Of a DNA stretch of 64,000 bases, positions 4,147 to 59,186 are shown in pieces. Numbering within the stretch: the first letter of the stretch is position 1; every line of letters begins with the position of its first letter. The DNA comes from Candidatus Saccharimonadota bacterium (lineage in GTDB: Bacteria; Patescibacteriota; Saccharimonadia; Saccharimonadales; JAXHNE01), in contig JAXHNE010000005.1 of NCBI GenBank assembly GCA_034520885.1, positions 13,748 through 77,747 of the forward strand. The letters are read 5' to 3'. Made by a program: the position numbers and the translations under genes. The notes under the pieces are model-generated. The model had not been told where the DNA came from, did no database searches, and worked only from the letters and a program-made list of their open reading frames with translations.

Positions 4147-4491
4147 CTAAATAATACCCGCTTGGGAGAGCTGGGTGCGCAACATGGTGTCCAGCTCCTC
4201 GTGCGGCATGGTGGCCACGTTTTCGCTGTACACCATGATGGCAATGTCATACGGGTGTTTTACGCGGTCTTCGTAATGGCGGACGACCTCGAACACCCGG
4301 CGGCGTATACGATTACGTACCACTGCGGATTTATTGACTTTTTTGCTCACCACTACCGCCAGCCGATACGTCGTGCGTTTGGGGTTTTTGTGGTATTTGA
4401 TGGCGCACATCGGCCCGCGCACCACCCTGCCGTGTTTGTACACGAACTTGAGGCTGCCGTAGCCGTGAAATCGATGTGCTTTGGAGATCAT
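4147..4491 (-). CDS. rnpA: Ribonuclease P protein component
   Basis: A 114-aa basic protein with the RNase P protein RNR-type motif (KSAVVRNRIRRRVFEVVR). Located between rpmH and yidC. Confidence 0.9.
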   Translation of the reverse strand: MISKAHRFHGYGSLKFVYKHGRVVRGPMCAIKYHKNPKRTTYRLAVVVSKKVNKSAVVRNRIRRRVFEVVRHYEDRVKHPYDIAIMVYSENVATMPHEELDTMLRTQLSQAGII

Positions 4492-5044: not shown

Positions 5045-6409
5045 GTGCAGGACAGTTTGTGGCAAGCGGTTTTGGGGGAGATCGAGCTATCGGTTTCGCG
5101 CGCCAGTTTCGTCACGTGGTTCAAGAACACTCGCCTGCTGCGCCGCAACGAAGAATTAATGGTCATTGGCGTTCCGAACGTCTTTATAAAGCAGCAATTG
5201 GAGCAAAAGTATAATTCTTTGGTGTTGGACATCTTAAAAAAGAACGGGGTCGACTCGCTCAAAGTGGAGTATAAGATAAACTCCTCCATTACCCCGAAAA
5301 AGAAAGAAAACGACGAGGAAGAAACGGTGGTGCGCCGCGCCGCCGGTACCGTGAAAAAAACCAAACCTTCGTCGGCACTTACCCACAACTACCGCCAAGG
5401 CATTAACGAACGCTACACTTTTGAAAACTTTATCGTGGGGTCGGCCAACGAGCTGGCTTACGCCGCTTGCCAGGCGGTGGCGCAAAATCCGGGCTCCAAA
5501 TACAATCCGTTGTTTTTGTACGGCGGCGTGGGGATCGGAAAAACCCACCTGATCCAGGCGGTCGGCAACGAAATCCTCAAAGCCCGGCCCTCCTCCCGGG
5601 TGGTGTATATTTCTACCGAGCAGTTCGTGCAGGAATTCCTGGACGCCATTCGCTACAAAAAGAATACCGATTTTGCCGGCCACTACCGCAGCGCGGACGT
5701 GTTGATCGTAGACGATATCCAGTTCATCGCCGGCAAGGAAAAAACCCAAGAAGAATTCTTCCACACCTTTAACGCCCTGCACCAGGCCAATAAACAGATA
5801 ATTATTAGCAGCGATAAGCCGCCGCGGGATATCCCGACACTGGAAGAGCGGCTGCAATCACGTTTTGCCTGGGGGATGTCGATTGACATGCAAAACCCCG
5901 ATTACGAAACGCGCTGCGCGATCGTGACCGCCAAAGCCCAATCCCACGACGCTACGCTAGCGCCGGACGTAGTGGAATTTTTGGCCAATTTAATACAGAC
6001 CAACATCCGTGAGCTGGAAGGCGCGCTTAATCAACTACTCGCCTTTTGTGAAATGCGCGGGCTGGAGCCGGAAATCGGGATCGCCAAATCCTTGCTGAGC
6101 GGAAAATCTTCCCGCCCCAAACACGTCAGCGCCAAACAAATCATTGAGCGGTGCGCCAAACACTTTAACGTGGAGGTAGAAGACGTGCTCGGCCCCAAGC
6201 GCGACAAAGACATCGTGGTGCCGCGGCAAATCGCTATGTACATGCTGCGTAGTGAATTGCATTTGAGTTTTCCCAAAATCGCCCGGGAGCTTGGCCGTAA
6301 AGACCACACCACCGCGATTCATTCGGTCGAAAAAATCGAAAAGGCGTCCGGTTTGGATCCGGATCTTAAAACGGCGCTTTCCGATATTAAGGAGCGGTTG
6401 TATGCGTAG
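5045..6409 (+). CDS. dnaA: Chromosomal replication initiator DnaA
   Basis: AAA+ Walker A LFLYGGVGIGKTHL, Walker B LIVDDIQF, and the C-terminal DNA-binding domain (PRQIAMYMLR...HTTAIHSV). The start is set at GTG 5045, with GGGAG 6 nt upstream, giving VQDSLWQAVLGEI.... The track ORF begins at 4949 with an implausible extension. Confidence 0.9.
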   Translation: MQDSLWQAVLGEIELSVSRASFVTWFKNTRLLRRNEELMVIGVPNVFIKQQLEQKYNSLVLDILKKNGVDSLKVEYKINSSITPKKKENDEEETVVRRAAGTVKKTKPSSALTHNYRQGINERYTFENFIVGSANELAYAACQAVAQNPGSKYNPLFLYGGVGIGKTHLIQAVGNEILKARPSSRVVYISTEQFVQEFLDAIRYKKNTDFAGHYRSADVLIVDDIQFIAGKEKTQEEFFHTFNALHQANKQIIISSDKPPRDIPTLEERLQSRFAWGMSIDMQNPDYETRCAIVTAKAQSHDATLAPDVVEFLANLIQTNIRELEGALNQLLAFCEMRGLEPEIGIAKSLLSGKSSRPKHVSAKQIIERCAKHFNVEVEDVLGPKRDKDIVVPRQIAMYMLRSELHLSFPKIARELGRKDHTTAIHSVEKIEKASGLDPDLKTALSDIKERLYA

Positions 6410-6597
6410 TTTTGGAAGGTGGAAGATGGTAGGTGGAAGATGGAATTCATATTTTAGTACTTGGTTTTTGGCAAGTGGTCGTGAAAGTCTACTACTGGGT
6501 ATGCGTAAGTTTGGAAGGTGGAAGATGGTAGGTGGAAGATGGCGGTTGGGTGCTAACACTCTTTACTCTTTGCTCTTTGCTCTTTGCTCACACCTGT
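6400..6597. repeat. 44-bp direct repeat including the last dnaA codons, plus heptamer tracts
   Basis: gtatgcgta-N2-tttggaaggtggaagatggtaggtggaagatgg occurs at 6400-6443 and 6499-6542 (2 mismatches). The first copy contains the dnaA codons TAT GCG TAG. The internal words are ggaaggt ggaagat ggtaggt ggaagat (period 7). They are followed at 6568-6597 by ctcttta ctctttg ctctttg ctctttg ctcac. Confidence 0.8.
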
Positions 6598-6944
6598 GGG
6601 TGGCGTGTGGAGAAATCGTTGGAAAAGCTGTTCGTAAGGTTCGTGGGTTTTACACAAATACACAGCGCGCACTAAAAACATCATTTATTCACGTACGTTT
6701 TACACGGGTCCGTGCACAGTTTTTGTACTCACTTTTTCACAGGAATTTTACGAATTCTTCCCTGTTATTTGCTTTTGTACACATCTCCCACTGCCCCTAT
6801 AACGACTACTACTTATATAAACTAGTTAGAAGAAAGGTTTAAAAATGAATCCTATAAAACCGGCTCCAGAAAAAGTAAGGACAGGAAGTTCAACACTACA
6901 TTACAACCCAGGCATAACAATAAAACCAAAGGAGGTTTAACGGA

Positions 6945-12197: not shown

Positions 12198-14763
12198 TGG
12201 TAAAGTACGCTCCTGCTGCTTCGACCGCCGCTTCCTCCAGGAGGCAAGGGTTGGCAATCCTTTTTTCTTCCAATCCAGTGTAGGGGTTTTCATTTCCTTC
12301 GCCGGACTCTTCCCATCGTTCTTTGTACTCTTCGCAGCTTTCTTCGGTTAATTGATCGGGGTTTCGAGTAAAGGCGGGATCATTCTGGCTATAGCCGTAC
12401 CGTGTAATTCCAAAGGCGTTTATTGCCAGTTGCTGTTCGGCCAGTGAATCCGCCCCCACACTGCCGGTAAAAGCATTCCTTAAGTTCGCCTTGAAACCAT
12501 TCATTATTCCGAAGATCGCGCCAGTGCCCTGAGTTTGACCAATGGGTATAGAACCAACCAGGCCGCTGGCGAGTGATTGAGGGTGCTCAAGGCTTGCGAG
12601 GCGCGTAAGTAAGTCTTCTTTACGGAAGTTTTGACGTTGTTGCTCCAACTGTTCCTTCGTTATTTTAGCGTACTCTTCGTCGCTAATAACCGGGGCGCCC
12701 AGACCGTAAGGTTGGCCGGATTCGTCATATCCGCCCTCGGCGAATTCCGCCGATGTCACATCAGCGCCCGCTATGACTCCGTCCAACTTGACACGCGCCG
12801 GGCTGTCTTCTTGTACGGGGAGCGGAAAGACGTAACTAAATACCCATGTAAGAAAGGTGTCGAACAGGTTTTTAGCCCACTCTTCGAATGTATCGTAACC
12901 ACGAATATTGGATACCAAACCAAAGACGACACTTCCTATTGAGCTCAGGACGAAGTCTACAGCACCAACTATCCTTTCAAGGAAAAAGCGATAATCTGCT
13001 GGGCAAGGAGCGTTAATTTCTACAACAATTTCAACGCCTGGTGGACTTGTTACGCAGTCATCCAACGTATTTACTGCGCTGGCCACTCTATCGACCACCG
13101 GATTGTCCCGAAGCTTCTCTACCTCGAATCTATCCCCCGGGCCTCTAACAATCTTCTTTTCATCGCACACGTGATCACCTCTGTCTATCGGTTCTCCGTC
13201 CTGACAAGTGTATTCCTCGTCGGATTGTGCATGCACCGTTGAACTTCCGAGGAAGGCGACGTCATTGTTTTGTTGATTGGAATAGGCGCGCCACAATTTA
13301 CTTTTTTCAGCACCATCAAGGTCACTCAAAGCCGCTCCAAGTTCATTCAAGTCTACTTCGTGAGATTTTGTCTCGTCATTCAATGAACGAAAACCAGTAT
13401 AAATTTCTCTGTATTGTTCAGCAGCCAAAGCCGAATGGAACCGACTAAGTGCATCGTCATCTATAGCCCGGTCAAAATCATCAGCCAAAAGAGCCATGGA
13501 CGCAACAAAGTATAATTGTCCTGCCACAGGAATTTTAGTCGCTGCAAGCCGAGCCGAACTATCCTTCATGACCTTTGCCAACAATTTTTCGAGGACATAA
13601 CTGCTCACAGTTCCCCTGCTTCTACCAAGAGGTTTTCCATTCTCGTCTGTTCCACGAAAATGCTTTATAATGTCATTTCTGTCTTCCTCGGAAAGGTTGT
13701 TTCTGTCAAGGTCTCTTTCCCGCAAGTCGTTGGGGCCACAAGAGTTTGCGCGGCTTCCGATGTTCCTGTCGATAGCGCAGGTAAATATGAGGCCATACTT
13801 ACTAGAAAAAGGATATACAAACCTGCTTACGAATCTGTACTTATATCTCGTTCGTGCGCTTGCACTCCGGTCTTCCAGGTTATCTCTCGTGTCGCAAGCC
13901 CAAAAACACCAAAGCCTGACGTCGTGTTTTCGCTGGAGGTATTTACGGATTGAGCGGCGCTCCATGACCTGATAGATCTTTGTTTCTTGCCGTAAAAAAC
14001 GGTTCATTTCACGGCCGAAATCCCTCCTCCCCCTGTCGGTTACGATATTCCTGAATTTTCCGTCAACGTCCCTGCTTAAGTCGATTTCACTCCTGAGTTT
14101 GGTATCGTATAGGCGATGTCGAGTAATGCCGGTATCACTGTCTTGTTCCGTTCTGATTTCTATACCGTAGTTATCAAATAACTTTTGCTCGACTCGTGCG
14201 TCGCGCCATTGATTGAACAAGTTACCAGCGATACCTGCCCCCCTATAGGTATATCTGCAGTCGAGAGACACTGTCTGAGTACAGGTATTGAGCTGAGTCA
14301 TATAGGACACCATATATCTTTCCATGAGATGCCCCGCCCGGGCTTCAACGGCGTTGGCGGCAACAGCAAACGCTTTTTGGTTGATATTCTGCATAAAGTG
14401 TTCGAGCTTGAGTGCTGGGAGGGTCAATACCGATATGAGCACACCCCCGCCCACGAAAAGGCCGATAACTCCTCCTCCGGCTTTTCTGCGGCGGGTCCAG
14501 AACTTTTTCTTATTGGCACCACTTCCGTCATCTTTAAATAAGCTTTGCTCTTCTTCGCCTCCAGTGTCTTTACGAGGTTCAGCACCTTCTTCCTTTTCAG
14601 CGATTTCGTTAGGCGAGAGTGATCTTTGGCCGATATCCTCCGCCGCTCCGCTGTGGGCTTCGCGGTCCATGGCCTCTTCTTCATCGGGAGAAATACCGGT
14701 AATACCCCTTAATTCATCATTCGAGGTCCCCTTTTTTTGTCGTTGATCGTCGTAGACTGGCAT
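12190..14763 (-). CDS. Large T4SS-associated membrane protein, function unknown
   Basis: 857 aa. Acidic cytoplasmic N-terminus, a TM segment (GGGVIGLFVGGGVLISVLTLPAL) and a large exported region with a second hydrophobic patch. Lies between the virB4-like gene and the hydrolase. No family recognised. Confidence 0.6.
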   Translation of the reverse strand: MPVYDDQRQKKGTSNDELRGITGISPDEEEAMDREAHSGAAEDIGQRSLSPNEIAEKEEGAEPRKDTGGEEEQSLFKDDGSGANKKKFWTRRRKAGGGVIGLFVGGGVLISVLTLPALKLEHFMQNINQKAFAVAANAVEARAGHLMERYMVSYMTQLNTCTQTVSLDCRYTYRGAGIAGNLFNQWRDARVEQKLFDNYGIEIRTEQDSDTGITRHRLYDTKLRSEIDLSRDVDGKFRNIVTDRGRRDFGREMNRFLRQETKIYQVMERRSIRKYLQRKHDVRLWCFWACDTRDNLEDRSASARTRYKYRFVSRFVYPFSSKYGLIFTCAIDRNIGSRANSCGPNDLRERDLDRNNLSEEDRNDIIKHFRGTDENGKPLGRSRGTVSSYVLEKLLAKVMKDSSARLAATKIPVAGQLYFVASMALLADDFDRAIDDDALSRFHSALAAEQYREIYTGFRSLNDETKSHEVDLNELGAALSDLDGAEKSKLWRAYSNQQNNDVAFLGSSTVHAQSDEEYTCQDGEPIDRGDHVCDEKKIVRGPGDRFEVEKLRDNPVVDRVASAVNTLDDCVTSPPGVEIVVEINAPCPADYRFFLERIVGAVDFVLSSIGSVVFGLVSNIRGYDTFEEWAKNLFDTFLTWVFSYVFPLPVQEDSPARVKLDGVIAGADVTSAEFAEGGYDESGQPYGLGAPVISDEEYAKITKEQLEQQRQNFRKEDLLTRLASLEHPQSLASGLVGSIPIGQTQGTGAIFGIMNGFKANLRNAFTGSVGADSLAEQQLAINAFGITRYGYSQNDPAFTRNPDQLTEESCEEYKERWEESGEGNENPYTGLEEKRIANPCLLEEAAVEAAGAYFTNE

Positions 14764-15155
14764 TATTGAGTCCTGATTTTTGAGTTTTGTGTCTTGAGTG
14801 ATTTAAGAAGCCCGCTCAGTATCTTGGATATTTCATCGGTATTCTCCACCAGTCTATAATAGTCCTCAGTCTTGAAGTACTCAAGACTTCTTCCGAGTTC
14901 AAGCATAGATTCAACTTCGGCAGCAGAACCTTTGGCAATCAAGAGAAAGTTGGAAAAAGCCTTTGGGCTTCTTCTGGAGTGGCCTTCGGCTATATTGTTC
15001 ATAATCGAGACGGACGCTCTTTGTATCTGATCACGGAAGGAAAAGTCTTTGTTATTTTGCAGTAGTCCATATATTTCAACGCGTAAATGACGAGCTTTTT
15101 GCCAAGCCTTGATGTCTCGAAACGACTGCCCGGTGTTTTTGTTTACTTTGCTCAT
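14763..15155 (-). CDS. Four-helix-bundle protein (23S rRNA IVS protein / Avd-like family)
   Basis: 130 aa. Motif QIQRASVSIMNNIAEGHSRRSPKAFSNFLLIAKGSAAEVESML. Its stop shares 1 nt with the ATG of the downstream 857-aa gene (TAATG). Confidence 0.85.
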   Translation of the reverse strand: MSKVNKNTGQSFRDIKAWQKARHLRVEIYGLLQNNKDFSFRDQIQRASVSIMNNIAEGHSRRSPKAFSNFLLIAKGSAAEVESMLELGRSLEYFKTEDYYRLVENTDEISKILSGLLKSLKTQNSKIRTQ

Positions 15156-15196
15156 GGCTTTTGCTCAATACTCATCACTCACTACTCACAACTCAT
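14763..15196 (-). mobile_element. Putative heptamer-armed cassette 2 carrying a four-helix-bundle gene
   Basis: The right arm (15156-15196) reads gctcaat actcatc actcact actcaca actcatt (actcNNN). The left arm (14766-14810) reads ttgagtc ctgattt ttgagtt ttgtgtc ttgagtg (NNNgagt, the complement). The arm cores atcactca...aactca are shared. The left arm supplies the last codons of the gene (KSLKTQNSKIRTQ). Confidence 0.55.
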
Positions 15197-17122
15197 TTAT
15201 GAGCCGGGGCTTAGGCGGTTGTTCAGGTCTATTGTACCTTGTTCGCCGGATATTTCGCCCTGTTGTTCTATTTGGCTTACTTGTTCCGGATTGGTGGTGA
15301 TCAAATTGGTTTCCGTGGGGCTGGCGGTAACCTGAATATGTACGTGATTTTGCCCGGCAAAGAATAACCCTTGACCCACCGGGAATTGGCTGAGGCGTTT
15401 CTTTTCCTCGCTAGTGAGTTTGAATACATGAGAAAGTGTGTCCACGGCGGTGGAGGATTGTTTGAGCAGGATTTGCATGGAGGCGTTGGCCACGATTGCC
15501 CGCCCCATACGGCTACCCATAAAGTCTTCCACGTCTTGTGAAATGGTGGTGATACCCAGGTTGTATTTACGGGCCCGTTTGGCCAGGCTGAACATGAAAT
15601 TGGCGGAATCTTCGTACTTCATGAGCTGCCAGGCTTCGTCGACCACCAGCATACGACGCTTTTGGTCGGCTTTGGTTTTGTTCCAGATAAAGTTAAGTAC
15701 GATATACATGGCCACCGGGCGCAGTTCGTCTTCCAGGTCACGGATATTAAATACCACCATCGGGTTGTTGATGTCGATGTTAGACGGTTGCGAGAAGATA
15801 CCCGCGAACGTACCGGTGGTGTATTTGCGAAGCCGTTGCGCCAATTGCGGCCCATTTCCGCCCATATGTAACAGCGTGTCGTAAAGATCGTTAATGGTCG
15901 GCGGCGGCGAAGTGTGCGTGAGCGGATCGTTGGTGATTCCGGCTTTGGCATAGGTTTCGATCAGTGCGGCGTCCAGATCGGCCTCTTCAGCGGGGCTGAG
16001 CGCCGGAGCAATGCTGCCCTGGGCGCCTTCTTGTTGAGCCATTTGGGCCTGGGCGCCGCCCATCATCAGCCGTAAGAGCCCGTGCAAAGTAATCAGGTTG
16101 CTGCGCAGGGCGTTATCGGCCTCCTCTTCGTCGGCAACTTTCGGCAAATCAAAAGGGTTTATCCTGGTCGGTGAATTCAAACTTAAGCGAACGTAGGCTC
16201 CGCCGACCGCTTCGGCCATGCGCTGGTATTCGTTTTCCGGGTCGATAATGAACACCTCGGTGCCGAACATCATGCTACGCAAGGCTTCCAGCTTAACGGT
16301 AAAACTTTTACCGGCGCCGGACTTGGCAAACACCACGGAATTGCCGTTTTCCAAGGAAAAGCGATCAAAAATCACCAACCCGGAGTTGTGCATGTTAATG
16401 CCGTAAAGAATGCCGTTATCTTGCGTAAGATCGGCCGAAGTGAACGGGAAGCTGGTGCTTAAAGCGCCGGTGTTCAGGTTGCGGCGAATCTGCAGTTGAT
16501 CCGTAAATTGCGGCACGGTGCTGTTTAAGCCTTGCTCTTGCTGTGAAGTGGCCGGTTTGGAGTAAATTAATTGCTGGCCAAGCATGGATTCCACTTTTTG
16601 GGCGACGTATTCCAGCTCGTCTTCCGATCCCCCGTAAATCGTAAAGTACAGCCCGAAGCGGAAGAAGCGTTCTTCGCCCACCTGTAGTTTGTCGCGCATT
16701 TCCTCGGCGTCCTGGATGGCGGCCTGGGTGCCCGGATCGCGAACCCGACCCTTCTCGGCAGTGATTTGCATATCGGCCTCCAAGCGGGACACCTTTTTCT
16801 TGAGGTTATCCAGCACTACCTGGCTTTCGACTGGATAAATGTAAATTGAAAGATCAATCACTTCGTCCAGATTGACCATACTACTTAACCAACCGGTAAA
16901 AATTTGCCGCGGATACCCATACACGTAGTAGGTGCGGGCGTAGCGGGTGCCGATTTGAAAGTCCTTATTGTTAAAGACAATGGAGCTGGGGGCAATAAAG
17001 TCACGGAGCGCGCCAACACCCTTCTGGAAAGCGGCTTGGACTTCTTGCTCCTCACGGGCTTTTTGCTGCTGCGCCAGCGTCACCGGATCGGTCTGGTCGT
17101 TCTTTTTACCAAACAAACTCAC
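15197..17122 (-). CDS. virB4: VirB4/TrbE/ConE-family type IV secretion ATPase
   Basis: 641 aa. Walker A VFAKSGAGKSFT and Walker B MLVVDEAWQLM. The N-terminal domain is typical of VirB4 (GTRYARTYYVYGYPRQIFTGWL). GTG start. Confidence 0.9.
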   Translation of the reverse strand: MSLFGKKNDQTDPVTLAQQQKAREEQEVQAAFQKGVGALRDFIAPSSIVFNNKDFQIGTRYARTYYVYGYPRQIFTGWLSSMVNLDEVIDLSIYIYPVESQVVLDNLKKKVSRLEADMQITAEKGRVRDPGTQAAIQDAEEMRDKLQVGEERFFRFGLYFTIYGGSEDELEYVAQKVESMLGQQLIYSKPATSQQEQGLNSTVPQFTDQLQIRRNLNTGALSTSFPFTSADLTQDNGILYGINMHNSGLVIFDRFSLENGNSVVFAKSGAGKSFTVKLEALRSMMFGTEVFIIDPENEYQRMAEAVGGAYVRLSLNSPTRINPFDLPKVADEEEADNALRSNLITLHGLLRLMMGGAQAQMAQQEGAQGSIAPALSPAEEADLDAALIETYAKAGITNDPLTHTSPPPTINDLYDTLLHMGGNGPQLAQRLRKYTTGTFAGIFSQPSNIDINNPMVVFNIRDLEDELRPVAMYIVLNFIWNKTKADQKRRMLVVDEAWQLMKYEDSANFMFSLAKRARKYNLGITTISQDVEDFMGSRMGRAIVANASMQILLKQSSTAVDTLSHVFKLTSEEKKRLSQFPVGQGLFFAGQNHVHIQVTASPTETNLITTNPEQVSQIEQQGEISGEQGTIDLNNRLSPGS

Positions 17123-17144
17123 AAGACAACCCCCCGGGACTCTA

Positions 17145-17234
17145 AAGTCTGAAATCTGAAATGTGAAACCAGAAACAAATCTGAAATCTGAAATGTGAAA
17201 CCAGAAACAAATCTGAAATCTGAAATGTGAAACT
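17145..17234. repeat. 31-bp tandem repeat (about 2.8 copies) built of heptamers
   Basis: aaatctgaaatctgaaatgtgaaaccagaaac is repeated head-to-tail at 17146, 17177 and 17208 (the last copy is partial). It sits between the virB4 start and the stop of the four-helix-bundle gene. Confidence 0.9.
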
Positions 17235-17636
17235 TCATGATGAATTCCTCACAATCGCTCCGAGAATATTCATTAATTCGGTTGCTTCCTTCTGCAGTCT
17301 CGACTGTTCTTTACGATTTAATTCATTTGCTGTAATAAGTTCTAACCAGTAAATTGTTTCTCTCGCTTCTTTTTTTGCGATCTTAACCCGCATAATAAAA
17401 TCTTTCTTGCTTAAGGATTGATTTGCCTCCAAGTAGTTCGCACCAACGGAACCGGAAGAGCGAACGAGTTGCTTGCCGTCCTCTCTGTTACCGGCATTTT
17501 TAGGAAGTGCCCCCACGAATAAACGAACGTCTTTTGCGAACTTTTTAGTTCTATCTTCAAGATCAAAACGTTTCTGATTTCGTGCTTCGTGCTTGTTTCT
17601 GATTTCGTGCTTCGTGCTTCGTGCTTCAGTTTTCAT
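17235..17636 (-). CDS. Four-helix-bundle protein (23S rRNA IVS protein / Avd-like family), subtype B
   Basis: The start is set at ATG 17636, in an ATGA overlap with the upstream stop. Motifs RFDLEDRTKKFAKDV and QLVRSSGSVGANYLEANQSLSKKDFIMRVKIAKKEARET. The track ORF's 60-aa N-terminal extension overlaps the upstream gene and is rejected. Confidence 0.8.
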   Translation of the reverse strand: MKTEARSTKHEIRNKHEARNQKRFDLEDRTKKFAKDVRLFVGALPKNAGNREDGKQLVRSSGSVGANYLEANQSLSKKDFIMRVKIAKKEARETIYWLELITANELNRKEQSRLQKEATELMNILGAIVRNSS

Positions 17637-18547
17637 GAATATATATCCTTTTCCAGCTGTGGCTGGGCGGCTTGGCCTTCGCCCTTGGTGACAACTGGCG
17701 CTGTCATGGTGTTGAAGTCTTTCAGTTGCTGGCGGGTCGCGGTGTCCGGATTGTAGGTGTCGTAGTACAGTTCGATCAGCTCTTGCGTGTCCAGCGGGAT
17801 TCCCTGGATGCCGCATTGCTGCAACCCGTTTAACACCGCTTGTACGCGGTTACGCAGTTCGTCCTTGGCTTTGTTGAGCGTGGCTTCGTTGATGGTGACG
17901 TGCACGTCCTTGGGCTTGAAAATATGGGTCAGCCCCTGGAAGAATCCCCTACTACTTTCCACGGCCTGCTTTAGATCACCTTCCGGAAAGTACGGAATTA
18001 CCACGTAAAAATTCTTGTCCATAATGTTGGTTTGCAGGGAAAGGTTGTCGATGTAGGTAATGTAATCCTCCATTAACAGTGATAGCAGCATATTGTCATG
18101 CTCGCCACGGATTTTATCCAGCTTTTGGATATAGGGGGTCATGTCCACTTTGCGTGATCGCAGGAAAATTTGTATCGGAAAATATAAGGAGTTTAAAAAT
18201 CCCTGGTAACTGTATTCCACCGCATCCCGTTCTTCCGGGCTCATGAGATCGAAGTTGATGGAGCGGACGGCCACTACGGAGCGAAAGGAGCCGTCGTTCA
18301 TAATCACGATGCCATCGCGCACTTCGGCAATCTGTAAGGAGTTCTGGGTGCTATTAGGGTTGCCGGCCGGAGGTTGTTCCTTAGATTTTTGAGGTGTTGG
18401 TTGCTGGCCTTGAGATTGTTGGGGTGGCGGCTGTTGCCCCGGCGCTTGTTGTTGGCCGGGGTTTTGGGGCGCGTAGGCCTGCCCCGGCTGCGATTGAGCG
18501 GGAGGCTGCTGGGGATTGTTTTGTTGGCCGGGGTTTTGGGGATTCAT
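17633..18547 (-). CDS. T4SS-associated protein with a Gln/Pro-rich N-terminus, function unknown
   Basis: 304 aa. The first ~70 aa are low complexity (NPQNPGQQNNPQQPPAQ...). The segment DGSFRSVVAVRSINFDLMSPEERDAVEYSYQGFLNSLYFPIQIF is reminiscent of the N-terminal region of VirB4-type proteins, but this resemblance is weak and judged only by eye. Confidence 0.55.
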   Translation of the reverse strand: MNPQNPGQQNNPQQPPAQSQPGQAYAPQNPGQQQAPGQQPPPQQSQGQQPTPQKSKEQPPAGNPNSTQNSLQIAEVRDGIVIMNDGSFRSVVAVRSINFDLMSPEERDAVEYSYQGFLNSLYFPIQIFLRSRKVDMTPYIQKLDKIRGEHDNMLLSLLMEDYITYIDNLSLQTNIMDKNFYVVIPYFPEGDLKQAVESSRGFFQGLTHIFKPKDVHVTINEATLNKAKDELRNRVQAVLNGLQQCGIQGIPLDTQELIELYYDTYNPDTATRQQLKDFNTMTAPVVTKGEGQAAQPQLEKDIYS

Positions 18548-18802
18548 GTAAAACTAAACTCCACGTTTCAAATATCAATTTCCAGGGAATGGCTAAACAT
18601 TAACGTTTTCCCTGTCAATTTTACTTGTGATCGACCGTAATATCAAAACTATCCGATGACTTTCATTCATAAAAACCTCCGGATCGTAAGGAACTGATCG
18701 CACATTGGAGTTTGTGATTTGAGATTTAAGTTCTTCACGCCACCCTAAAAAGGTTATTCTTATATGCGGTTAATTATAGAGGAATTTTGTGCTTTGCACA
18801 AA

Positions 18803-19287
18803 ATAGCTGAAAGCTAAATGCTAAGAGCTCAAAGCTGCGCAATTTCCAATTTCCAATTTCTAATTTTCATTCAATTCTCAACCGCCATTTTTTAAACTAG
18901 TGGTAATTTTTTGGAAGATTAATACCAACTCATGAACTTCTTGCCATAATGATCGTAAATCAGCTTTTTTCGAAGGCGTTGCGGTACTAAGCATACGGAG
19001 CCAATGCTGTGTTTCTTGAGCCTCTTTTTTACAGATATGAATTTTATTACGGAAATCTTTTTTAGAGCTGGCCCCGTTCGCTTCCATATAGTTTGCTCCA
19101 ATGCTTGTCGAGGAACGAACCAACTGATTAATCAAAGGCTTGTTTATATTATTTTGTTTAATAACTTTACAGAGCTTAATTACATCTTCCCCAAACCTTG
19201 ATGTTCTTTCCTCTAAATCAAATTTATTGTCTTTTTGAGCCATTGAAGATTGATTGTAAATTGTAAAATTGAAAACTAAAAATTAAC
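18803..19287 (-). mobile_element. Putative heptamer-armed cassette 4 carrying a four-helix-bundle gene
   Basis: The left flank begins with agctgaa agctaaa tgctaag agctcaa agctgcg, then caatttc caatttc caatttc taatttt cattcaa. The right flank (19244-19287) reads ttgaaga ttgattg taaattg taaaatt gaaaact, whose reverse complement gives the caattt-type words. Confidence 0.55.
18878..19243 (-). CDS. Four-helix-bundle protein (23S rRNA IVS protein / Avd-like family), subtype B
   Basis: 121 aa. Motifs KFDLEERTSRFGEDV and QLVRSSTSIGANYMEANGASSKKDFRNKIHICKKEAQET. Confidence 0.85.
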   Translation of the reverse strand: MAQKDNKFDLEERTSRFGEDVIKLCKVIKQNNINKPLINQLVRSSTSIGANYMEANGASSKKDFRNKIHICKKEAQETQHWLRMLSTATPSKKADLRSLWQEVHELVLIFQKITTSLKNGG

Positions 19288-19345
19288 TTCTTGAATGATT
19301 CGATAGGCATACTGACAGCATAACGTATCAGCATTCAGCTGGTGG

Positions 19346-43650: not shown

Positions 43651-43832
43651 TACTTTTTACTTATTACTTTCCCCATCTTCTATCTTCCATCTTCTATCTA
43701 CCAAATTCCAACTTCCATCTTCCAACTCCTAGCACCTAAACCCTATCCATGAACTATGAACCCAGAACTCTTTCCTCAATCCTCAATCCCCGATCTCCTA
43801 TCTACTATCTACCAACTTCCACCTTCTATCTG
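43651..43832. repeat. About 180-bp orphan heptamer-periodic pyrimidine-rich tract
   Basis: The tract reads ccatctt ctatctt ccatctt ctatcta ccaaatt ccaactt ccatctt ccaactc ctagcac ctaaacc ctatcca tgaacta tgaaccc agaactc tttcctc aatcctc aatcccc gatctcc tatctac tatctac caacttc caccttc. No complementary arm lies nearby. Confidence 0.85.
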
Positions 43833-43851
43833 CGCCTCTGTTAAATGATAA

Positions 43852-43889
43852 TAATACTAGAATTAATACTAGTATTAATTCTAGTATTA
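43852..43889. repeat. Perfect 38-bp AT-rich palindrome overlapping the valS stop codon (possible bidirectional terminator)
   Basis: taatactagaattaatact|agtattaattctagtatta. The two halves are exact reverse complements, and 43887-43889 is the valS TAA. Confidence 0.8.
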
Positions 43890-46847: not shown

Positions 46848-47147
46848 ATGAAGAAATACATCGAAACGAATAAAAATACGGAAGAAATCGGATTCCGGGA
46901 ACTTCGTAATAACGCCGATAGCGTGATACGTAACGTCGGCAAAGGCAAATCCTATGTGGTGAAGCGCCACTCGAAGCCGCTGTTTCGTATCGTTCCGATG
47001 GACGAGCCGGTGTGGAATACGGTCGTTGATTTTACGGAACTTTCACCGGAAGGGGTCGGCATTGAGGAGGTTCTTGAGAGCATTGATCAGCTAAAAGCCG
47101 AAAAACCCAAAAAATATGGCGGACAAAATAAAAAAATTTCTGGCTAA
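46848..47147 (+). CDS. Phd/YefM-type antitoxin (probable)
   Basis: 99 aa. EIGFRELRNNADSVIRNVGKGKSYVVKRHSKPLFRIVPMDE fits the Phd/YefM N-terminal fold pattern. It overlaps the toxin gene by 32 nt. Confidence 0.65.
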   Translation: MKKYIETNKNTEEIGFRELRNNADSVIRNVGKGKSYVVKRHSKPLFRIVPMDEPVWNTVVDFTELSPEGVGIEEVLESIDQLKAEKPKKYGGQNKKISG

Positions 47148-47361
47148 GCTTTCAAAGCGGGAGCTCGATAGCGTGCAAGCGCTTCTTTTGGATATTCGCA
47201 ATCACGAAATAGAACACCTTGACGTAAAGCCCATAAAAGGCCAAAAGGGCGTGTACCGGGCTCGCAAGGGGCGGATCCGGGTTATCTTCTCGAACCATAG
47301 CGGTAAAATACATATTCTGGCGATTGGCCGGCGGGACGATCAAACTTACCGCGGTTTTTAG
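47116..47361 (+). CDS. RelE/ParE-family toxin
   Basis: 81 aa. ...KPIKGQKGVYRARKGRIRVIFSNHSGKIHILAIGRRDDQTY matches the L.G....yR.R.G.yRiiy......i.i..i..R...Y pattern. Confidence 0.7.
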   Translation: MADKIKKFLAKLSKRELDSVQALLLDIRNHEIEHLDVKPIKGQKGVYRARKGRIRVIFSNHSGKIHILAIGRRDDQTYRGF

Positions 47362-47453
47362 GCTACATACTCAGATTCGGTTTGATATCGAGCGTGTACG
47401 GGTCGGCCTCGGGTTGATCATGCATCATCTTGAAACATCCCAATGTAGCAATC
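47362..47453 (-). pseudogene. Duplicated, diverged copy of the tsaD 3' end (last 29 codons plus stop)
   Basis: 92 bp with 9 mismatches relative to 47542-47633. It translates to IATLGCFKMMHDQPEADPYTLDIKPNLSM*, versus IATLGCFKMMHNQPQADPYTLDIKPNLSM* in tsaD. It starts 1 nt after the toxin stop codon. Confidence 0.8.
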
Positions 47454-47542
47454 CCCGCCCCAAAATCTTGACGCTCCACAATCTGGTTGCGGACTGCTTC
47501 GCTCAGGATTTGGGGCGGGGCAGGCATCGCGCCCGGTAATTG

Positions 47543-48766
47543 CTACATGCTCAGATTTGGTTTGATATCGAGCGTGTACGGGTCGGCTTGGGGTTGATTA
47601 TGCATCATCTTGAAGCACCCTAATGTAGCAATCATGGCGCCGTTGTCGGTCATGAGCTGGGGGTCGGTGTATTCGATTGGTATCGGTAGGCGTTCGGCAA
47701 GCTGGCGGCGGAGTTCCGGGTTGGCGGCCACGCCGCCGCCGATAACGACGCTCTCGGGCTGAAACTCCTCATAAGCCGCCGCTACCTTATCTACTACTGT
47801 TTCTATAGCAGTTCGTTGGAAACTGGCGGCAATATCGGCCTTCTGGGCTTCTGAGAGCCGTTCCGCGATCTTATGGGAAGGGAAGTGGTGATCCATGCCG
47901 ATTTCCTTTTGGGCGAGCCGTAAAACGGCCGTTTTGAGCCCGGAGAACGAATAATTGTATTTATCTTGGAGCTTGGCTTTCGGGAGGTCATAGGCATATG
48001 GATCGCCGTCTTTAGCTTTTTGGCCGATACTCGGGCCGCCGGGGTAGGGGAGGCCGAGCAATTTGGCGACTTTATCGAAGGCTTCGCCAATGGCGTCATC
48101 GGTGGTCTGCCCCAAAAGCGTGTAGTCAAAGTGATCACGCCAGATAACGATCTGCGAATGCCCGCCACTGACGATAAGCCCCAGCATTGGGAATGCCGGG
48201 CTCTTAGCCCTTAGCCTATAGCTATCAGCTTTTAGCTTTGAGCTTTCAGCTATTCCCGTAAGGAAATTGGCATAGATGTGTGCTTCCACATGGTTGATGG
48301 CGTAGAGCGGTTTGTTTTTGGTGATGGCATAGGTGCGCGCGGCCATCACGCCGACCAATAGTGAACCGCCCAACCCCGCACCATGCGTCACGGCGATAGC
48401 GTCAATTTCATCCCACGGATTAGATTCCGTTGTCCGTTGTCTGTTCTCTGTGATCTGTTTTCTGTCCTCTGTTGTCCGTTGTCTGTAATCTGTGTTCTGT
48501 AATCTGTGTTCTGTAATCTGTGTTCTGTGCCCCTTGCTCCCTGCTCCCTGCTCCGTGTTCGCCACGAACGCATCATGCAGTGCTTTATTTATGACCGGCT
48601 GGATGCTTTCGATATGGCTGCGGGCGGCGATTTCCGGCACTACGCCACCGTACGCCACGTGCAAATCCATGCTGGACAGCACCGCGTTGGACAGCAGTTT
48701 TTGACCGTCTTCCACGACCGCGGCCGCCGTTTCGTCGCAACTCGTTTCAATTCCCAGTATTTTCAT
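47543..48766 (-). CDS. tsaD: tRNA N6-adenosine threonylcarbamoyltransferase TsaD, with two in-frame low-complexity insertions
   Basis: MKILGIETSCDETAAAVVEDG..., VPEIAARSHIE, GLIVSGGHSQ and the C-terminal conserved blocks. At 407 aa it is longer than usual because of heptamer-tract insertions at 48424-48561 and 48200-48253. Confidence 0.9.
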   Translation of the reverse strand: MKILGIETSCDETAAAVVEDGQKLLSNAVLSSMDLHVAYGGVVPEIAARSHIESIQPVINKALHDAFVANTEQGAGSKGHRTQITEHRLQNTDYRQRTTEDRKQITENRQRTTESNPWDEIDAIAVTHGAGLGGSLLVGVMAARTYAITKNKPLYAINHVEAHIYANFLTGIAESSKLKADSYRLRAKSPAFPMLGLIVSGGHSQIVIWRDHFDYTLLGQTTDDAIGEAFDKVAKLLGLPYPGGPSIGQKAKDGDPYAYDLPKAKLQDKYNYSFSGLKTAVLRLAQKEIGMDHHFPSHKIAERLSEAQKADIAASFQRTAIETVVDKVAAAYEEFQPESVVIGGGVAANPELRRQLAERLPIPIEYTDPQLMTDNGAMIATLGCFKMMHNQPQADPYTLDIKPNLSM

Positions 48767-48792
48767 AACGTTTTACCAAGTATACTAGGAGT

Positions 48793-50085
48793 ATGCAGCC
48801 AAAGAAATTCGTCCGAAGAGTTGTCCCCAAAAGCGGGGTACGTATTGCCGAGGAATCTTATCGCCGCGGTCGTATCTATGCTTTACAAGCTCGCTACGGC
48901 TTTCCGGCCCGCAAACTAAAAATTATCGGGGTAACTGGCACCAACGGCAAAACCACGACGTGCCTGTACCTGAACGAAATCTTAAAGGCCGGCGGGTATA
49001 AAACCGCGATGTACACCACCGCGACCATTGAGCTTAATGGTAAAAGCGAGCCCAATCACACGCACCGCACGCTGCCGTTGACCGGCAAGCTGCTGGCGTT
49101 TTTGAAAAAAGTCCAAAAAAGTAACGTCGATTATTTAATTCTGGAGGTCACCAGCCAAGCACTGGATCAGCATAAACTACTGGGCATTCCGTTCGAGGTG
49201 TCGATATTAACCAACCTGACGCAAGAACACCTGGACTACCACGGCACCATGAAACGCTACGCCAAAGCCAAAGCGCGATTATTTAACACCTACGCCGATC
49301 CGAAGTTTTGCGTACTCAATGCTGATAGCGAGTGGTACGACTACTTCTTAGAACAATCAGTCGGACAGGTAGTAAGTTACGGAACGAGCAGCGACGCTAC
49401 GGAGCGAATCAAACAAATAAAATCTACTAAATCCGGCATGAGCTGGCAGCTGCTTAACGGCGATAAAGTCATGGACGTGCGCATTCCGCAATACGGCGAA
49501 TTTAACGTGACCAACGCTTCGGCCGCGGCAACCGCCGCTTTGGCGCTACAAGTAAAACCCAAAGATATCACCACGGGCGTAAAAAACGTCAAACGTATGG
49601 CGGGGCGCATGGAGTTGGTTGACGCGGGCCAACCCTTTAAGGTGTGGATAGATTATGCGGTGACACCGGACGCCTTGGAAAAGGTGCTTGCCGCCGGACG
49701 TCAAGCGGCAAGCAAAAGCGGGCGGGTGATAATCGTTTTCGGAGCGACGGGTGACCGCGATAAAGCCAAACGCCCCAAAATGGGCGAAGTCGTGGCTAAA
49801 CATGCCGATAAAATTTATTTGACGGACGACGAAACCTACACCGAAGACCCCGCGGCCATTCGCAAGGCCGTCATGCGCGGTATCGTGAAAGGGAAGGGCA
49901 AAAGCAAAACCAAAACCACCGAAATTGCCGACCGCCAAAAAGCCATTGCCGCGGCACTGAAAGCCGCCAAAAAGGGCGACGTGGTAATTATCACCGGCAT
50001 CGGCCACCAAAACGCCCGCAACATGGGCGGAAAAGACGTCTCCTGGAACGAACGGAAAATCATCGAAAACTATTTGACAAAATGA
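48793..50085 (+). CDS. Mur ligase family protein (MurE-like, short N-terminus)
   Basis: P-loop GVTGTNGKTTT, a central Mur-ligase domain and the C-terminal TGDRD motif. AGGAG lies upstream of the ATG. The usual DNPR motif is replaced by DDETY, so the added amino acid is unclear. Confidence 0.8.
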   Translation: MQPKKFVRRVVPKSGVRIAEESYRRGRIYALQARYGFPARKLKIIGVTGTNGKTTTCLYLNEILKAGGYKTAMYTTATIELNGKSEPNHTHRTLPLTGKLLAFLKKVQKSNVDYLILEVTSQALDQHKLLGIPFEVSILTNLTQEHLDYHGTMKRYAKAKARLFNTYADPKFCVLNADSEWYDYFLEQSVGQVVSYGTSSDATERIKQIKSTKSGMSWQLLNGDKVMDVRIPQYGEFNVTNASAAATAALALQVKPKDITTGVKNVKRMAGRMELVDAGQPFKVWIDYAVTPDALEKVLAAGRQAASKSGRVIIVFGATGDRDKAKRPKMGEVVAKHADKIYLTDDETYTEDPAAIRKAVMRGIVKGKGKSKTKTTEIADRQKAIAAALKAAKKGDVVIITGIGHQNARNMGGKDVSWNERKIIENYLTK

Positions 50086-55333: not shown

Positions 55334-55600
55334 ATGGCCGTAAACATCAAGCCACTTGGCGAGTACGTGGTGGCGCAAACCGAAGAAGCGCCCAGCAAAA
55401 CCGCCAGCGGGTTGTATATCCCCAAAGAAGCGCAGGAAAAACCCAAGATTTCCAAGGTTTTGGCCGTGGGCAAGGACGTCAAAGAGGTAAAAGTGGGCGA
55501 CCGCATTATTTACGGCGGTTTCAGCAACACCGAAGTCAACCATGACGGCGAAGATTACATGCTTATTAAGGAAGAAAACATCTACGCGGTAGTTAAATAG
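55334..55600 (+). CDS. groES: Co-chaperonin GroES
   Basis: 88 aa. MAVNIKPLGEYVVAQTEEAPSKTASGLYIP... AGGAGG lies upstream. Confidence 0.95.
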   Translation: MAVNIKPLGEYVVAQTEEAPSKTASGLYIPKEAQEKPKISKVLAVGKDVKEVKVGDRIIYGGFSNTEVNHDGEDYMLIKEENIYAVVK

Positions 55601-55657
55601 CTAAAAGCTTAAAGCCGAAAGCTCTGAGCTTATGGCTCTTGGCTCTTGGCTCAAGCG
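55598..55657 (+). repeat. Cargo-less heptamer-periodic hairpin in the groES-groEL spacer
   Basis: The tract reads tagctaa aagctta aagccga aagctct gagctta tggctct tggctct tggctca agc. The A-rich left half pairs with the T-rich right half (about 16 of 22 positions). This includes G-U pairs that form only in the sense-strand RNA. Confidence 0.7.
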
Positions 55658-58460: not shown

Positions 58461-58835
58461 ATGATGAGTGCAGCTTCACAGCAAGAGATACAAACCATGC
58501 TTGACCAAATGCGTACGCGCATGCAAGATCGAATGGCCACGAGACAGGACGTGCAACGGGCGACGGATGACGCCAGGGACCGCATGATCAGTTACATGCA
58601 CGACTATTTGCAGCAAAACCAGCAACAGTTCGTACGGCAACTGGATGACCGGACGAAAACGTATAAATCGCAGATAACGAATCTGGAATACCGGATCCAG
58701 TCGCTGGAACAAGAAATTCGTAACGCTAACCAGATACTAAACCAAATGGCCCAAAAGCAACAAAGCGTTATTATTCCGCATGTTCAGGAGGCGGTGAGTA
58801 ATCAACATAACTACCGCTATGTCCAGGAAGGCTAG
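58461..58835 (+). CDS. Hypothetical coiled-coil protein (Q-rich)
   Basis: 124-aa ORF with GGAGG upstream and a heptad-like composition. No family recognised. Confidence 0.5.
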   Translation: MMSAASQQEIQTMLDQMRTRMQDRMATRQDVQRATDDARDRMISYMHDYLQQNQQQFVRQLDDRTKTYKSQITNLEYRIQSLEQEIRNANQILNQMAQKQQSVIIPHVQEAVSNQHNYRYVQEG

Positions 58836-59186
58836 ATACTAGAGGTTAGAGGTTAGACGTTAGAGGCTAGACGTTAGAGATTGGAGGTTAGGATTTAGGA
58901 GTTCGTAGCTAGGCAGCTTAGCGGTTAGCAAAAACACAATGGGAAGGACGTAAATAGCGAGTTATCAGGTTTTTCAAACCCCATGGTAATGGAGCGTAAG
59001 TTCACTACGGGTAGGCTGTCACGCTGCCAATTAAACACCGGGTTGGTCACCAGGCTATTGATAAATAGAGGCCGCGGAAACACTTTCTTGGCTTTTACCT
59101 TCTACCCAACCTCCAACGTCTAACGTCTAGCGTCAAATTTCTAGCCTCTAGCCTCTAACGTCCAACCTCTAACGTCTTAGTCTCTA
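58836..59186. repeat. Heptamer-armed inverted repeat enclosing a 168-bp non-coding core
   Basis: The left arm (58836-58929) reads tagaggt tagaggt tagacgt tagaggc tagacgt tagagat .... The right arm (59098-59186) reads aacctcc aacgtct aacgtct ... agcctct agcctct aacgtcc aacctct aacgtct. The reverse complement of the left arm contains tagcctctaacgtctaacctcta, versus tagcctctaacgtccaacctcta in the right arm (about 24 of 25 nt). Confidence 0.85.

Follow-up and report, generated by a model that had tools for sequence, protein, structure and literature searches.

Repeat DNA that resides in frame within conserved genes has been described in detail for the Rickettsia palindromic elements (RPEs; Ogata et al. 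2000), which, in the account given by the review PMC10969869, are dispersed palindromes of ~150 bp with conserved family sequences, located both between genes and in frame within conserved, unrelated open reading frames (ORFs) of Alphaproteobacteria, with dozens of genes affected. According to the same account, the RPE peptides are translated, predicted to be compatible with the fold of the host protein, and present or absent among orthologs. Tandem repeats with heptanucleotide units form a second point of reference; those treated in PMC4679880, i.e., the cyanobacterial STRR, the long simple sequence repeats (SSRs; Mrazek 2007) and the TAACTGA repeats of Beggiatoaceae, are presented there as mostly intergenic, with polymerase slippage proposed as their cause. 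In Borgs, tandem repeats give rise to amino-acid repeats and disordered regions, the repeats being perfect and the unit lengths within ORFs all divisible by three (PMC9879509). The present analysis is concerned with the gene tsaD in a stretch of 64,000 nt from one Saccharimonadales metagenome-assembled genome (the window, which covers only part of that genome), where two tracts of degenerate 7-nt units lie within the coding sequence. These tracts are probably in-frame, translated insertions of a dispersed repeat family composed of heptamer arrays, which resembles the RPEs and was later reshaped by slippage; a literature search returned no account of heptamer repeats of this kind in Saccharibacteria or bacteria of the candidate phyla radiation (CPR).

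Two heptamer-periodic tracts within tsaD

The ORF at 47543..48766 on the minus strand encodes a protein of 407 aa, which reaches 358 bits against the TsaD model TIGR03723 (cut-off 296) and is matched by the TsaD chains of the PDB at 1.6e-65. An identical protein is deposited at NCBI (MDZ7785896.1), the protein cluster of the window TsaD consists of a single member, and the close loci all come from Saccharibacteria or Saccharimonadales. An earlier inspection of the letters of the window (the sequence-only reading) had drawn attention to two heptamer-periodic tracts in this gene, and both were recovered with Tandem Repeats Finder (TRF):

48422..48559, minus strand: site 1 tract, 138 nt, residues 70-115 (NTEQ...TTES), part of a +48 aa insertion that separates helix alpha1 from the DAIAVT strand
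48535..48555, minus strand: 5' sub-array of site 1, (GGAGCAG)x3 (TRF 48535-48554, 2.9 copies, 100%)
48426..48534, minus strand: main sub-array of site 1, ~16 units of ACAGANN/ACGGANN (13 overlapping matches vs 0.04 expected)
48200..48253, minus strand: site 2 tract, 54 nt, residues 172-189 (IAESSKLKADSYRLRAKS), heptamers with an AGCT core

At site 1, arrays of period 7, 14 and 42 extend over 48429-48554, and at site 2, arrays of period 7 and 14 extend over 48216-48253; the tsaD tracts are tandem heptanucleotide arrays in the sense that at least three 7-nt units follow each other head to tail, beyond what chance provides. The identity of positions seven nucleotides apart (lag 7) reaches 0.73 (site 1) and 0.745 (site 2), compared with 0.26 in the remainder of tsaD, and none of 10,000 shuffles of each tract came as high. 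Since the lag-7 identity nearly equals that at lag 14 and does not fall below that at lag 21 in the tsaD tracts, the basic period is 7 nt, a property of the DNA, and not 21 nt, as for a repeat of the protein. The sequence-only reading had delimited site 2 exactly and had placed site 1 at 48424-48561, 2 nt off; the peptides it quoted are correct, and, as stated there, the length of both tracts is a multiple of 3 and neither has a stop codon in the frame that is read.

Site 1 is a composite, in which three GGAGCAG units are followed by ~16 units of ACAGANN or ACGGANN. It is open in all three sense frames (3/3), T accounts for 7% of its sense strand, and the encoded peptide repeats every 7 aa (HRTQITE/HRLQNTD/YRQRTTE/DRKQITE/NRQRTTE). 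Within the main sub-array, three perfect 14-mers at 48482-48528 (TRF period 14, 3.4 copies, 100%) and a 42-nt duplication (TRF period 42, 2.0 copies, 84%) show recent growth in frame-keeping steps, and in the closest relative, L161 (74% amino-acid identity), a shorter array of ~8 ACGGANG units occupies the same place. A HMMER search with the site-1 peptide gave 29 matches at E<=0.001; the 13 inspected among them are unrelated ORFs with 7-aa repeats (HRAQSTE, YRIQNTE, DNRQQTT), that is, translations of other heptamer microsatellites, and were set aside as uninformative on relatedness. The notion that the richness of site 1 in ANN codons might make it a sensor of N6-threonylcarbamoyladenosine (t6A) was likewise dropped, 23 ANN codons out of 48 being unremarkable for an A-rich tract.

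The first 36 nt of site 2 are nearly identical to site 2 of the relative L162, and 10 of the 14 third codon positions match there vs 44% in the core of the gene, a pattern that would fit either a constraint at the level of the DNA or a more recent common origin. As RNA, site 2 folds into one imperfect hairpin (-21.9 kcal/mol, z = -1.85), and 9 of 200 shuffles fold equally well. The tail of the tract, YRLRAKSP, aligns with the ordinary loop of relatives, Y-x-L-P/R-x-x-x-P. Furthermore, the window contains exactly three copies of the word ATAGCTRAAAGCT, at 18803, at 48241-48253 on the minus strand and at 55597, compared with an expectation of 0; the three loci align over ~36 nt, and the AGCTNAA unit family is found at 18805, at 55598 and in site 2. 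The kinship of site 2 with non-coding DNA at 18803 and 55598, asserted in the sequence-only reading, is thereby confirmed, and it links the tract to two arrays outside tsaD:

18802..18837, plus strand: AGCT-family intergenic array (ATAGCTGAAAGCT...), adjoining a cassette arm
55596..55655, plus strand: AGCT-family array that makes up the whole groES-groEL spacer, with the groES stop codon TAG in its first unit (groEL by Pfam)

An arrangement of the two tsaD tracts as an inverted pair around the 170-nt middle segment was considered and rejected, the ACAGA and AGCT units not being complementary.

The insertion status was judged on the 120 best homologs, all from Saccharibacteria, in a list biased towards sequences that resemble the inserts of the query. 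The most frequent length is 353 aa (52 of 120, 43%), without either insert, and the longest homolog has 423 aa; the window protein, with 407 aa, exceeds this Saccharibacteria baseline by 48 aa at site 1 and by 6 aa at site 2. The baseline reads NQALSDANCTWDDI at site 1, and FLTETSLPGY followed by TLPxxQPxFP at site 2. Across the site-1 loop, the baseline segment of 14 residues was found in 45 of 55 loci fetched with patterns of the query protein, and a metagenome scan for tsaD relatives yielded mostly insert-free genes of the baseline length. In the alignment with TsaD from T. maritima (6nak), query residues 64-112 remain unmatched, and ~12-14 extra residues appear at 172-190. The proposal that both tracts are insertions thus stands as far as both loops are lineage-variable and 48 aa are gained at site 1; for site 2, the net gain over the 16-residue baseline loop that follows the HxxxH helix is only 6 aa, not the 18 aa covered by the tract.

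The extra length of the other homologs is found mainly at the same two loops, with insert sequences that are unrelated between lineages. A rough neighbour-joining tree calculated from the core columns shows the insert states in scattered positions, and the nearest neighbours of the window protein include insert-free proteins, P0002/L161 with its shorter related site-1 array, and P0009/L163 with an unrelated hairpin insert. In L029, L031, L036, L042, L016 and L007, TsaD insertions of up to ~60 aa were observed at two further loops, KAKM...YDFS and LP.PI.Y.DPKL, one of which contains a (CGGCCTA)3 heptamer run in L036.

The invariant residues of the TsaD family are all kept in the window protein, including H159, H163 and D374. 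An AlphaFold model calculated with 93 input sequences (mean predicted local distance difference test, pLDDT, 88.4; predicted template-modelling score, pTM, 0.86) displays the order of secondary structure elements of the TsaD N-terminal subdomain, with site 1 following helix 44-67 (alpha1) and site 2 following helix 159-168, the HxxxH metal-binding helix which provides H159 and H163. Both tracts are thus placed in loops, and Foldseek returns E. coli TsaD (4ydu, deposited as YgjD) as top match with a target-normalised TM-score (TMt) of 0.87. The TsaD fold is kept in the model despite both inserts, and the catalytic core is intact. While site 2 averages 74-89, the pLDDT falls to 45-62 over residues 71-110 in site 1, which, given this low confidence, looks like a loop that is probably disordered. 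Both inserts are in frame, stop-free and present or absent among orthologs, and their position in the model suggests that the two loops are surface-exposed.

Inserts of relatives and arrays across the window

What had escaped the sequence-only reading is that the inserts of relatives are discrete palindromic elements, the same element being found at different loops. Most of them are imperfect hairpins, in which a heptamer run, a short loop and a complementary heptamer run succeed each other, with helices of 4-5 bp separated by mismatches of 2-3 nt:

L162, site 1: (AGAGCAA)4 ... (CTGCTCA)4
L003, site 2: same element as in L162, site 1
L163, site 1: (TGGAAGG)4 ... (TTCCAAA)4
L003, site 1: (GAAGNNA)n ... 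(CTTCACA)n
L164, site 2: (GAGGTTA)n ... (TAACCTN)n
L165, site 1: (AGAGGTT)n ... (CTCTACT)n
L164, site 1: (NNATGAG)n ... (CTCANAA)n

Relative to shuffled sequences, the folding of these inserts gives z = -4.0 and -2.4 for L003, z = -2.7 for L163 and z = -4.7 for L164. The element common to L162 (site 1) and L003 (site 2) spans 75 nt and shows only 6 differences (92% identity), with the same loop sequence and the same frame, and the gene cores of L162 and L003 are each ~70% identical to the window tsaD at the DNA level. Without dispersal of a discrete element, its presence in different loops of diverged genes can hardly be accounted for, and it points to such dispersal rather than only to local growth of repeats. 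The (GGAGCAG)x3 sub-array of the window exhibits the GAGCARG unit and the frame of the left arm of this hairpin element, with the peptide EQGAGSK vs EQGARSK in L162 and L003; only these first three units of site 1 match a family that is present in other genomes.

Other unit families recur in a similar manner. The AGAGGTT family is shared by L164 (site 2), L165 (site 1) and a spacer of the window, and the insert families GGAAGG, AGAGGTT, CTCANNA and AGCTNAA are at the same time families of the window spacer arrays. Besides having a period-7 structure and being insertions relative to orthologs, the tsaD tracts belong to the same genome-wide population of arrays as the spacers and cassette flanks of the window, as the sequence-only reading had held. 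Scans of viral contigs for GAGCAAR and AGAGGTT arrays hit 9 and 34 miscellaneous contigs, respectively, including giant-virus bins, from which no conclusion is drawn.

A further observation relates to the borders of the inserts. The insert-bearing site-1 alleles (L162, L163, L003, L164, L165, and the window at 48410-48425) all share a start of AFP-like codons (GCN TTY CC) and, at their end, the palindrome TGATCCGTGGGATCA, translated as DPWDQ, the insert-free alleles having C-T-W-D-D; start and end may represent a target or boundary structure.

In ~0.6 Mb of Saccharibacteria loci, period-7 arrays are nearly all located inside tsaD, so that the two loops form a hot spot. The exception is the groES-groEL spacer of L165, where 4295-4334 is taken by a heptamer array (ATTTAAC) different from that of the window. 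The sequence-only reading had taken tsaD for an essential gene, a premise that rests on other bacteria and is doubtful for this phylum, since transposon-insertion sequencing in the cultivated Saccharibacterium Southlakia epibionticum called TsaD (SEML1_0048) non-essential, with dense insertions, together with TsaC, TsaB and the TsaE-like protein, i.e., the whole t6A pathway (PMC10633639, Table S1). The tsaD/Mur-ligase neighbourhood of the S. epibionticum genome is the same as in the window. Dispensability would be a simple reason why the gene tolerates repeated colonisation, and a relaxed constraint on tsaD may underlie the insert hot spot; judged by the conservation of its core, tsaD is still under selection in nature.

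Across the 64 kb, lag 7 is the only enriched short period, with 16 regions totalling 983 nt; lags of 2-20 that are not multiples of 7 gave 0-2 regions each, and shuffles gave ~0. Fourteen of the 16 arrays reside in the non-coding 13% of the window, and the two coding ones belong to tsaD. Entire spacers are filled by arrays, which reach up to start and stop codons, and the GGAAGRT family, found at 6413 and 6512, returns as its reverse complement at 43673. Beyond those of tsaD and the AGCT family, the following features are concerned:

6410..6598, plus strand: two (TGGAAGR)n blocks and (CTCTTTG)n, immediately 3' of the dnaA stop codon; the GGAAGG family is that of the L163 site-1 hairpin
14763-15155, ~17235-17636 and 18878-19243, minus strand: three PF05635 23S_rRNA_IVP (four-helix-bundle) genes, by Pfam
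15160..15198, plus strand: (CTCANNA)n spacer array between a 23S_rRNA_IVP gene and a VirB4/TraG-like gene; unit family of the L164 site-1 insert
17133..17233, plus strand: (TCTGAAA)n spacer array, one arm around the second 23S_rRNA_IVP gene
17570..17640, plus strand: array of the opposite arm, probably encoding the N-terminal 22 aa of the IVP protein
18832..18875, plus strand: (CAATTTC)n array flanking the third IVP gene
19250..19288, plus strand: (ATTGAAA/TTGTAAA)n array on the other side of the third IVP gene
43667..43834, plus strand: (ATCTTCC)n (GGAAGAT in reverse complement) and (TCCTCAA/ATCTACT)n, in the convergent spacer that precedes the valS stop codon
58827..58889, plus strand: (TAGAGGT)n, left arm of an inverted pair; family of the tsaD inserts of L164 (site 2) and L165 (site 1)
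59102..59180, plus strand: (AACCTCT/AACGTCT)n, right arm, 75-78% complementary to the left arm

The three 23S_rRNA_IVP genes sit among type IV secretion genes (PrgI-like, VirB4/TraG-like, lysozyme). Heptamer arrays make up all the spacers around them, in part as inverted arms, as in the pair 17165-17201/17570-17606 (70% complementary), and the genes look like gene cassettes with array termini. The inverted arrays at 58829-58916 and 59102-59177, in turn, are complementary over 64-76 nt and enclose ~190 nt, an interval with no ORF >52 aa and no Rfam match at E<=1, possibly an empty cassette or a small RNA of unknown type.

Some side observations on these regions should be recorded. The array region after dnaA (6400-6598) is the usual place of oriC, and a direct repeat of ~45 nt (6400-6445/6498-6543) copies the last dnaA codons. 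At 43852-43889, a perfect AT-rich palindrome of 38 nt, with 100% complementary arms of 19 + 19 nt, overlaps the stop codon of valS. The 3' end of tsaD recurs 180 nt downstream, where its last 92 nt, stop codon included, are found again with 91% identity (47362-47453/47542-47633), and the duplicated ends are separated by an 88-nt spacer with a CCCCGCCCCAAAATC/GATTTTGGGGCGGGG hairpin, for which there is no Rfam match; L006 has the same layout with a conserved spacer and a more diverged distal copy. The duplication has the look of a miniature element that integrated here together with a tsaD 3' end of its own, and the duplicated end is adjoined by a gene for a Phd/YefM-like antitoxin with an overlapping small ORF, the probable toxin (46848-47361, plus strand).

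Weighing the explanations

If the tracts are insertions of a dispersed array family, the following course of events can be envisaged. The genome would carry a population of degenerate heptanucleotide arrays of several unit families, often paired in inverted orientation around a short loop or a small gene, which occupy operon spacers and flank the 23S_rRNA_IVP gene cassettes. Array sequence would have entered the N-terminal subdomain of TsaD at two loops, which follow helix alpha1 and the HxxxH metal-binding helix, respectively, and an insert would persist only if its length is divisible by 3 and its reading frame contains no stop codon. Owing to the 7-nt unit, one array is read in all three frames, so that only stop-free, length-compatible arrays would survive. 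Translation of the insert would then yield a hydrophilic peptide that repeats every 7 aa; at site 1 this peptide would be long and probably disordered, and at site 2 short. The inserted arrays would keep changing by slippage or duplication in in-frame steps of 42 nt. Mobility of the elements is suggested by the occurrence of the same element at two positions in two genomes.

Several findings weigh against this explanation. No transposase, reverse transcriptase or other mobility enzyme was detected among the ~30 window proteins scanned with Pfam, no target-site duplications were recognised at the insert borders, and the combination of terminal inverted repeats, target-site duplication and cognate transposase is not seen in the window data. 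Site 1 has no complementary arm and no hairpin potential (minimum free energy -3.5 kcal/mol as DNA, -8.1 as RNA), and the same element at non-homologous positions is encountered in relatives (L162/L003), not for the window's own site 1. When the insert peptides of L003, L163, L165 and window sites 1 and 2 were concatenated and compared with protein sequences, no other host proteins emerged; nine candidates shared words with the query, and none scored. The +6 aa variant of site 2 is common to many diverged homologs and may therefore be old and vertically inherited, not recent. Translation of the tracts and disorder of site 1 are deduced, not observed. Finally, the ACAGANN unit has no other occurrence in the 64-kb window, so that for the larger tract local growth alone would suffice.

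The last point leads to purely local microsatellite growth by replication slippage within tsaD, without a link to the intergenic arrays by descent or transposition, in which case the similarity between loci would reflect nothing but a genome-wide slippage bias for 7-nt units. Besides the restriction of ACAGANN to tsaD, the perfect 14-mer copies, the 42-nt duplication, and the shorter array that L161 has at this place, with a related unit, are as expected from such growth, and heptanucleotides are the most abundant long SSR class in many bacteria (Mrazek 2007, as cited in PMC4679880). As the whole explanation it is nevertheless unlikely, because slippage leaves the inverted-arm architecture unexplained and does not provide for a 75-nt element with an identical loop at two loops of two genomes, for the 13-nt ATAGCTRAAAGCT and the 36-nt layout common to three window loci, or for the same unit families in the tsaD inserts of other genomes and in the spacers of the window.

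It can also be argued that the inserts are selected features of the protein, such as charged, flexible loops that aid tRNA binding or the contacts to TsaB or TsaE, and that the DNA periodicity merely reflects how they were built. The same two loops have been expanded repeatedly in Saccharibacteria, the frames are kept, the +6 aa variant of site 2 is widespread, and third codon positions of site 2 agree well between the window and L162. Conservation at third positions, however, favours a cause at the DNA or RNA level over one at the protein level, and a lag-7 identity equal to or above that of lag 21 is not what selection on the protein should produce. With insert sequences unrelated between lineages, 43% of the homologs without any insert, and site 1 predicted with low confidence, this explanation is improbable.

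Still less credit can be given to a contingency switch, in which the gain or loss of 7- or 14-nt units at the perfect 14-mers would shift the frame and turn tsaD off or on. The 3.4 perfect copies within the ORF would offer a site for it, an OFF state could be viable in view of the dispensability of tsaD in a cultivated Saccharibacterium, and phase variation by heptanucleotides is known elsewhere; most units, however, are degenerate, with only three perfect ones, which makes a poor substrate for slippage, and all 120 homologs are full length and in frame, in a set that is biased towards intact genes.

As to the fate of the tracts, site 2 contains 0 stop codons in the frame used, while the two remaining sense frames have 5 and 3. 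This difference implies that the tract is read by ribosomes, and the coding pattern suggests that both tracts are translated. Their removal before the mature protein, in the manner of an intron or an intein, which the sequence-only reading had left as an option, has next to nothing in its favour beyond the interruption of a conserved gene: a scan of 47300-48800 (tsaD and its flanks) found no Rfam family, introns included, at E<=1, insert lengths are always multiples of 3, tracts of 54 and 138 nt are too short for group I or II introns or inteins, and the 46 and 18 aa of low-complexity sequence that they encode do not qualify as either.

Taken together, insertion of a dispersed heptamer-array family remains the preferred explanation, and it admits a more far-reaching version, which is put forward tentatively as a serious possibility, though short of an even chance. 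Saccharimonadales would harbour undescribed mobile palindromic elements with inverted 7-nt arrays as arms, the full-size forms carrying a 23S_rRNA_IVP gene and the miniature forms filling spacers and inserting in frame, with two loops of a dispensable TsaD as recurrent landing site; they would be the CPR counterpart of the RPEs.

Comparison with known systems

If this explanation is true, tsaD would be the second independent case, after Rickettsia, of repeat DNA that colonises the gene of a conserved enzyme as protein loops, here in the reduced genomes of the CPR, and would serve as a clean natural experiment on the conversion of non-coding repeats into protein sequence. The shared unit families and the 75-nt element at two loops would then point to a spreading mechanism, which could be sought in cultivated, genetically tractable Saccharibacteria. 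From a practical point of view, it is a warning that length variation in core genes of the CPR can stem from repeat elements and not from functional domains.

Very small dispersed repeats nested in heptamer arrays were reportedly found in Nostoc/Anabaena by Elhai et al. in 2008, occasionally inside conserved genes and RNAs. They are alike in being tiny mobile repeats associated with heptamer arrays, and differ in phylum and sequences.

With the Borg repeats, the arrays of the window have in common a repeat process that acts at the level of the DNA in intergenic regions and ORFs, an A-rich composition, and the emergence of new hydrophilic or disordered protein segments. In contrast to the Borg units, the degenerate 7-nt units described here cycle through all three phases, and only the total length of an insert is a multiple of 3. 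The STRR, SSR and TAACTGA repeats are similar in that several 7-nt families exist, which are concentrated between genes, often beside start codons, and in that stop codons constrain their orientation; those repeats are, however, essentially non-coding and, in the account cited above, not reported as inverted-arm hairpins that flank gene cassettes.

The closest functional analogue of the tsaD inserts, by analogy of description, is provided by the RPEs. Both are found between genes and in frame within a conserved ORF, both add segments that are compatible with the fold, as predicted here for TsaD, and both are present or absent among orthologs. On the other hand, the arms of the elements described here are heptamer arrays, whereas RPEs do not consist of 7-nt units, only tsaD is seen to be affected, and the larger of the two window tracts is non-palindromic. 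The tsaD case thus combines 7-nt units, an inverted-arm architecture, and in-frame residence in a conserved enzyme.

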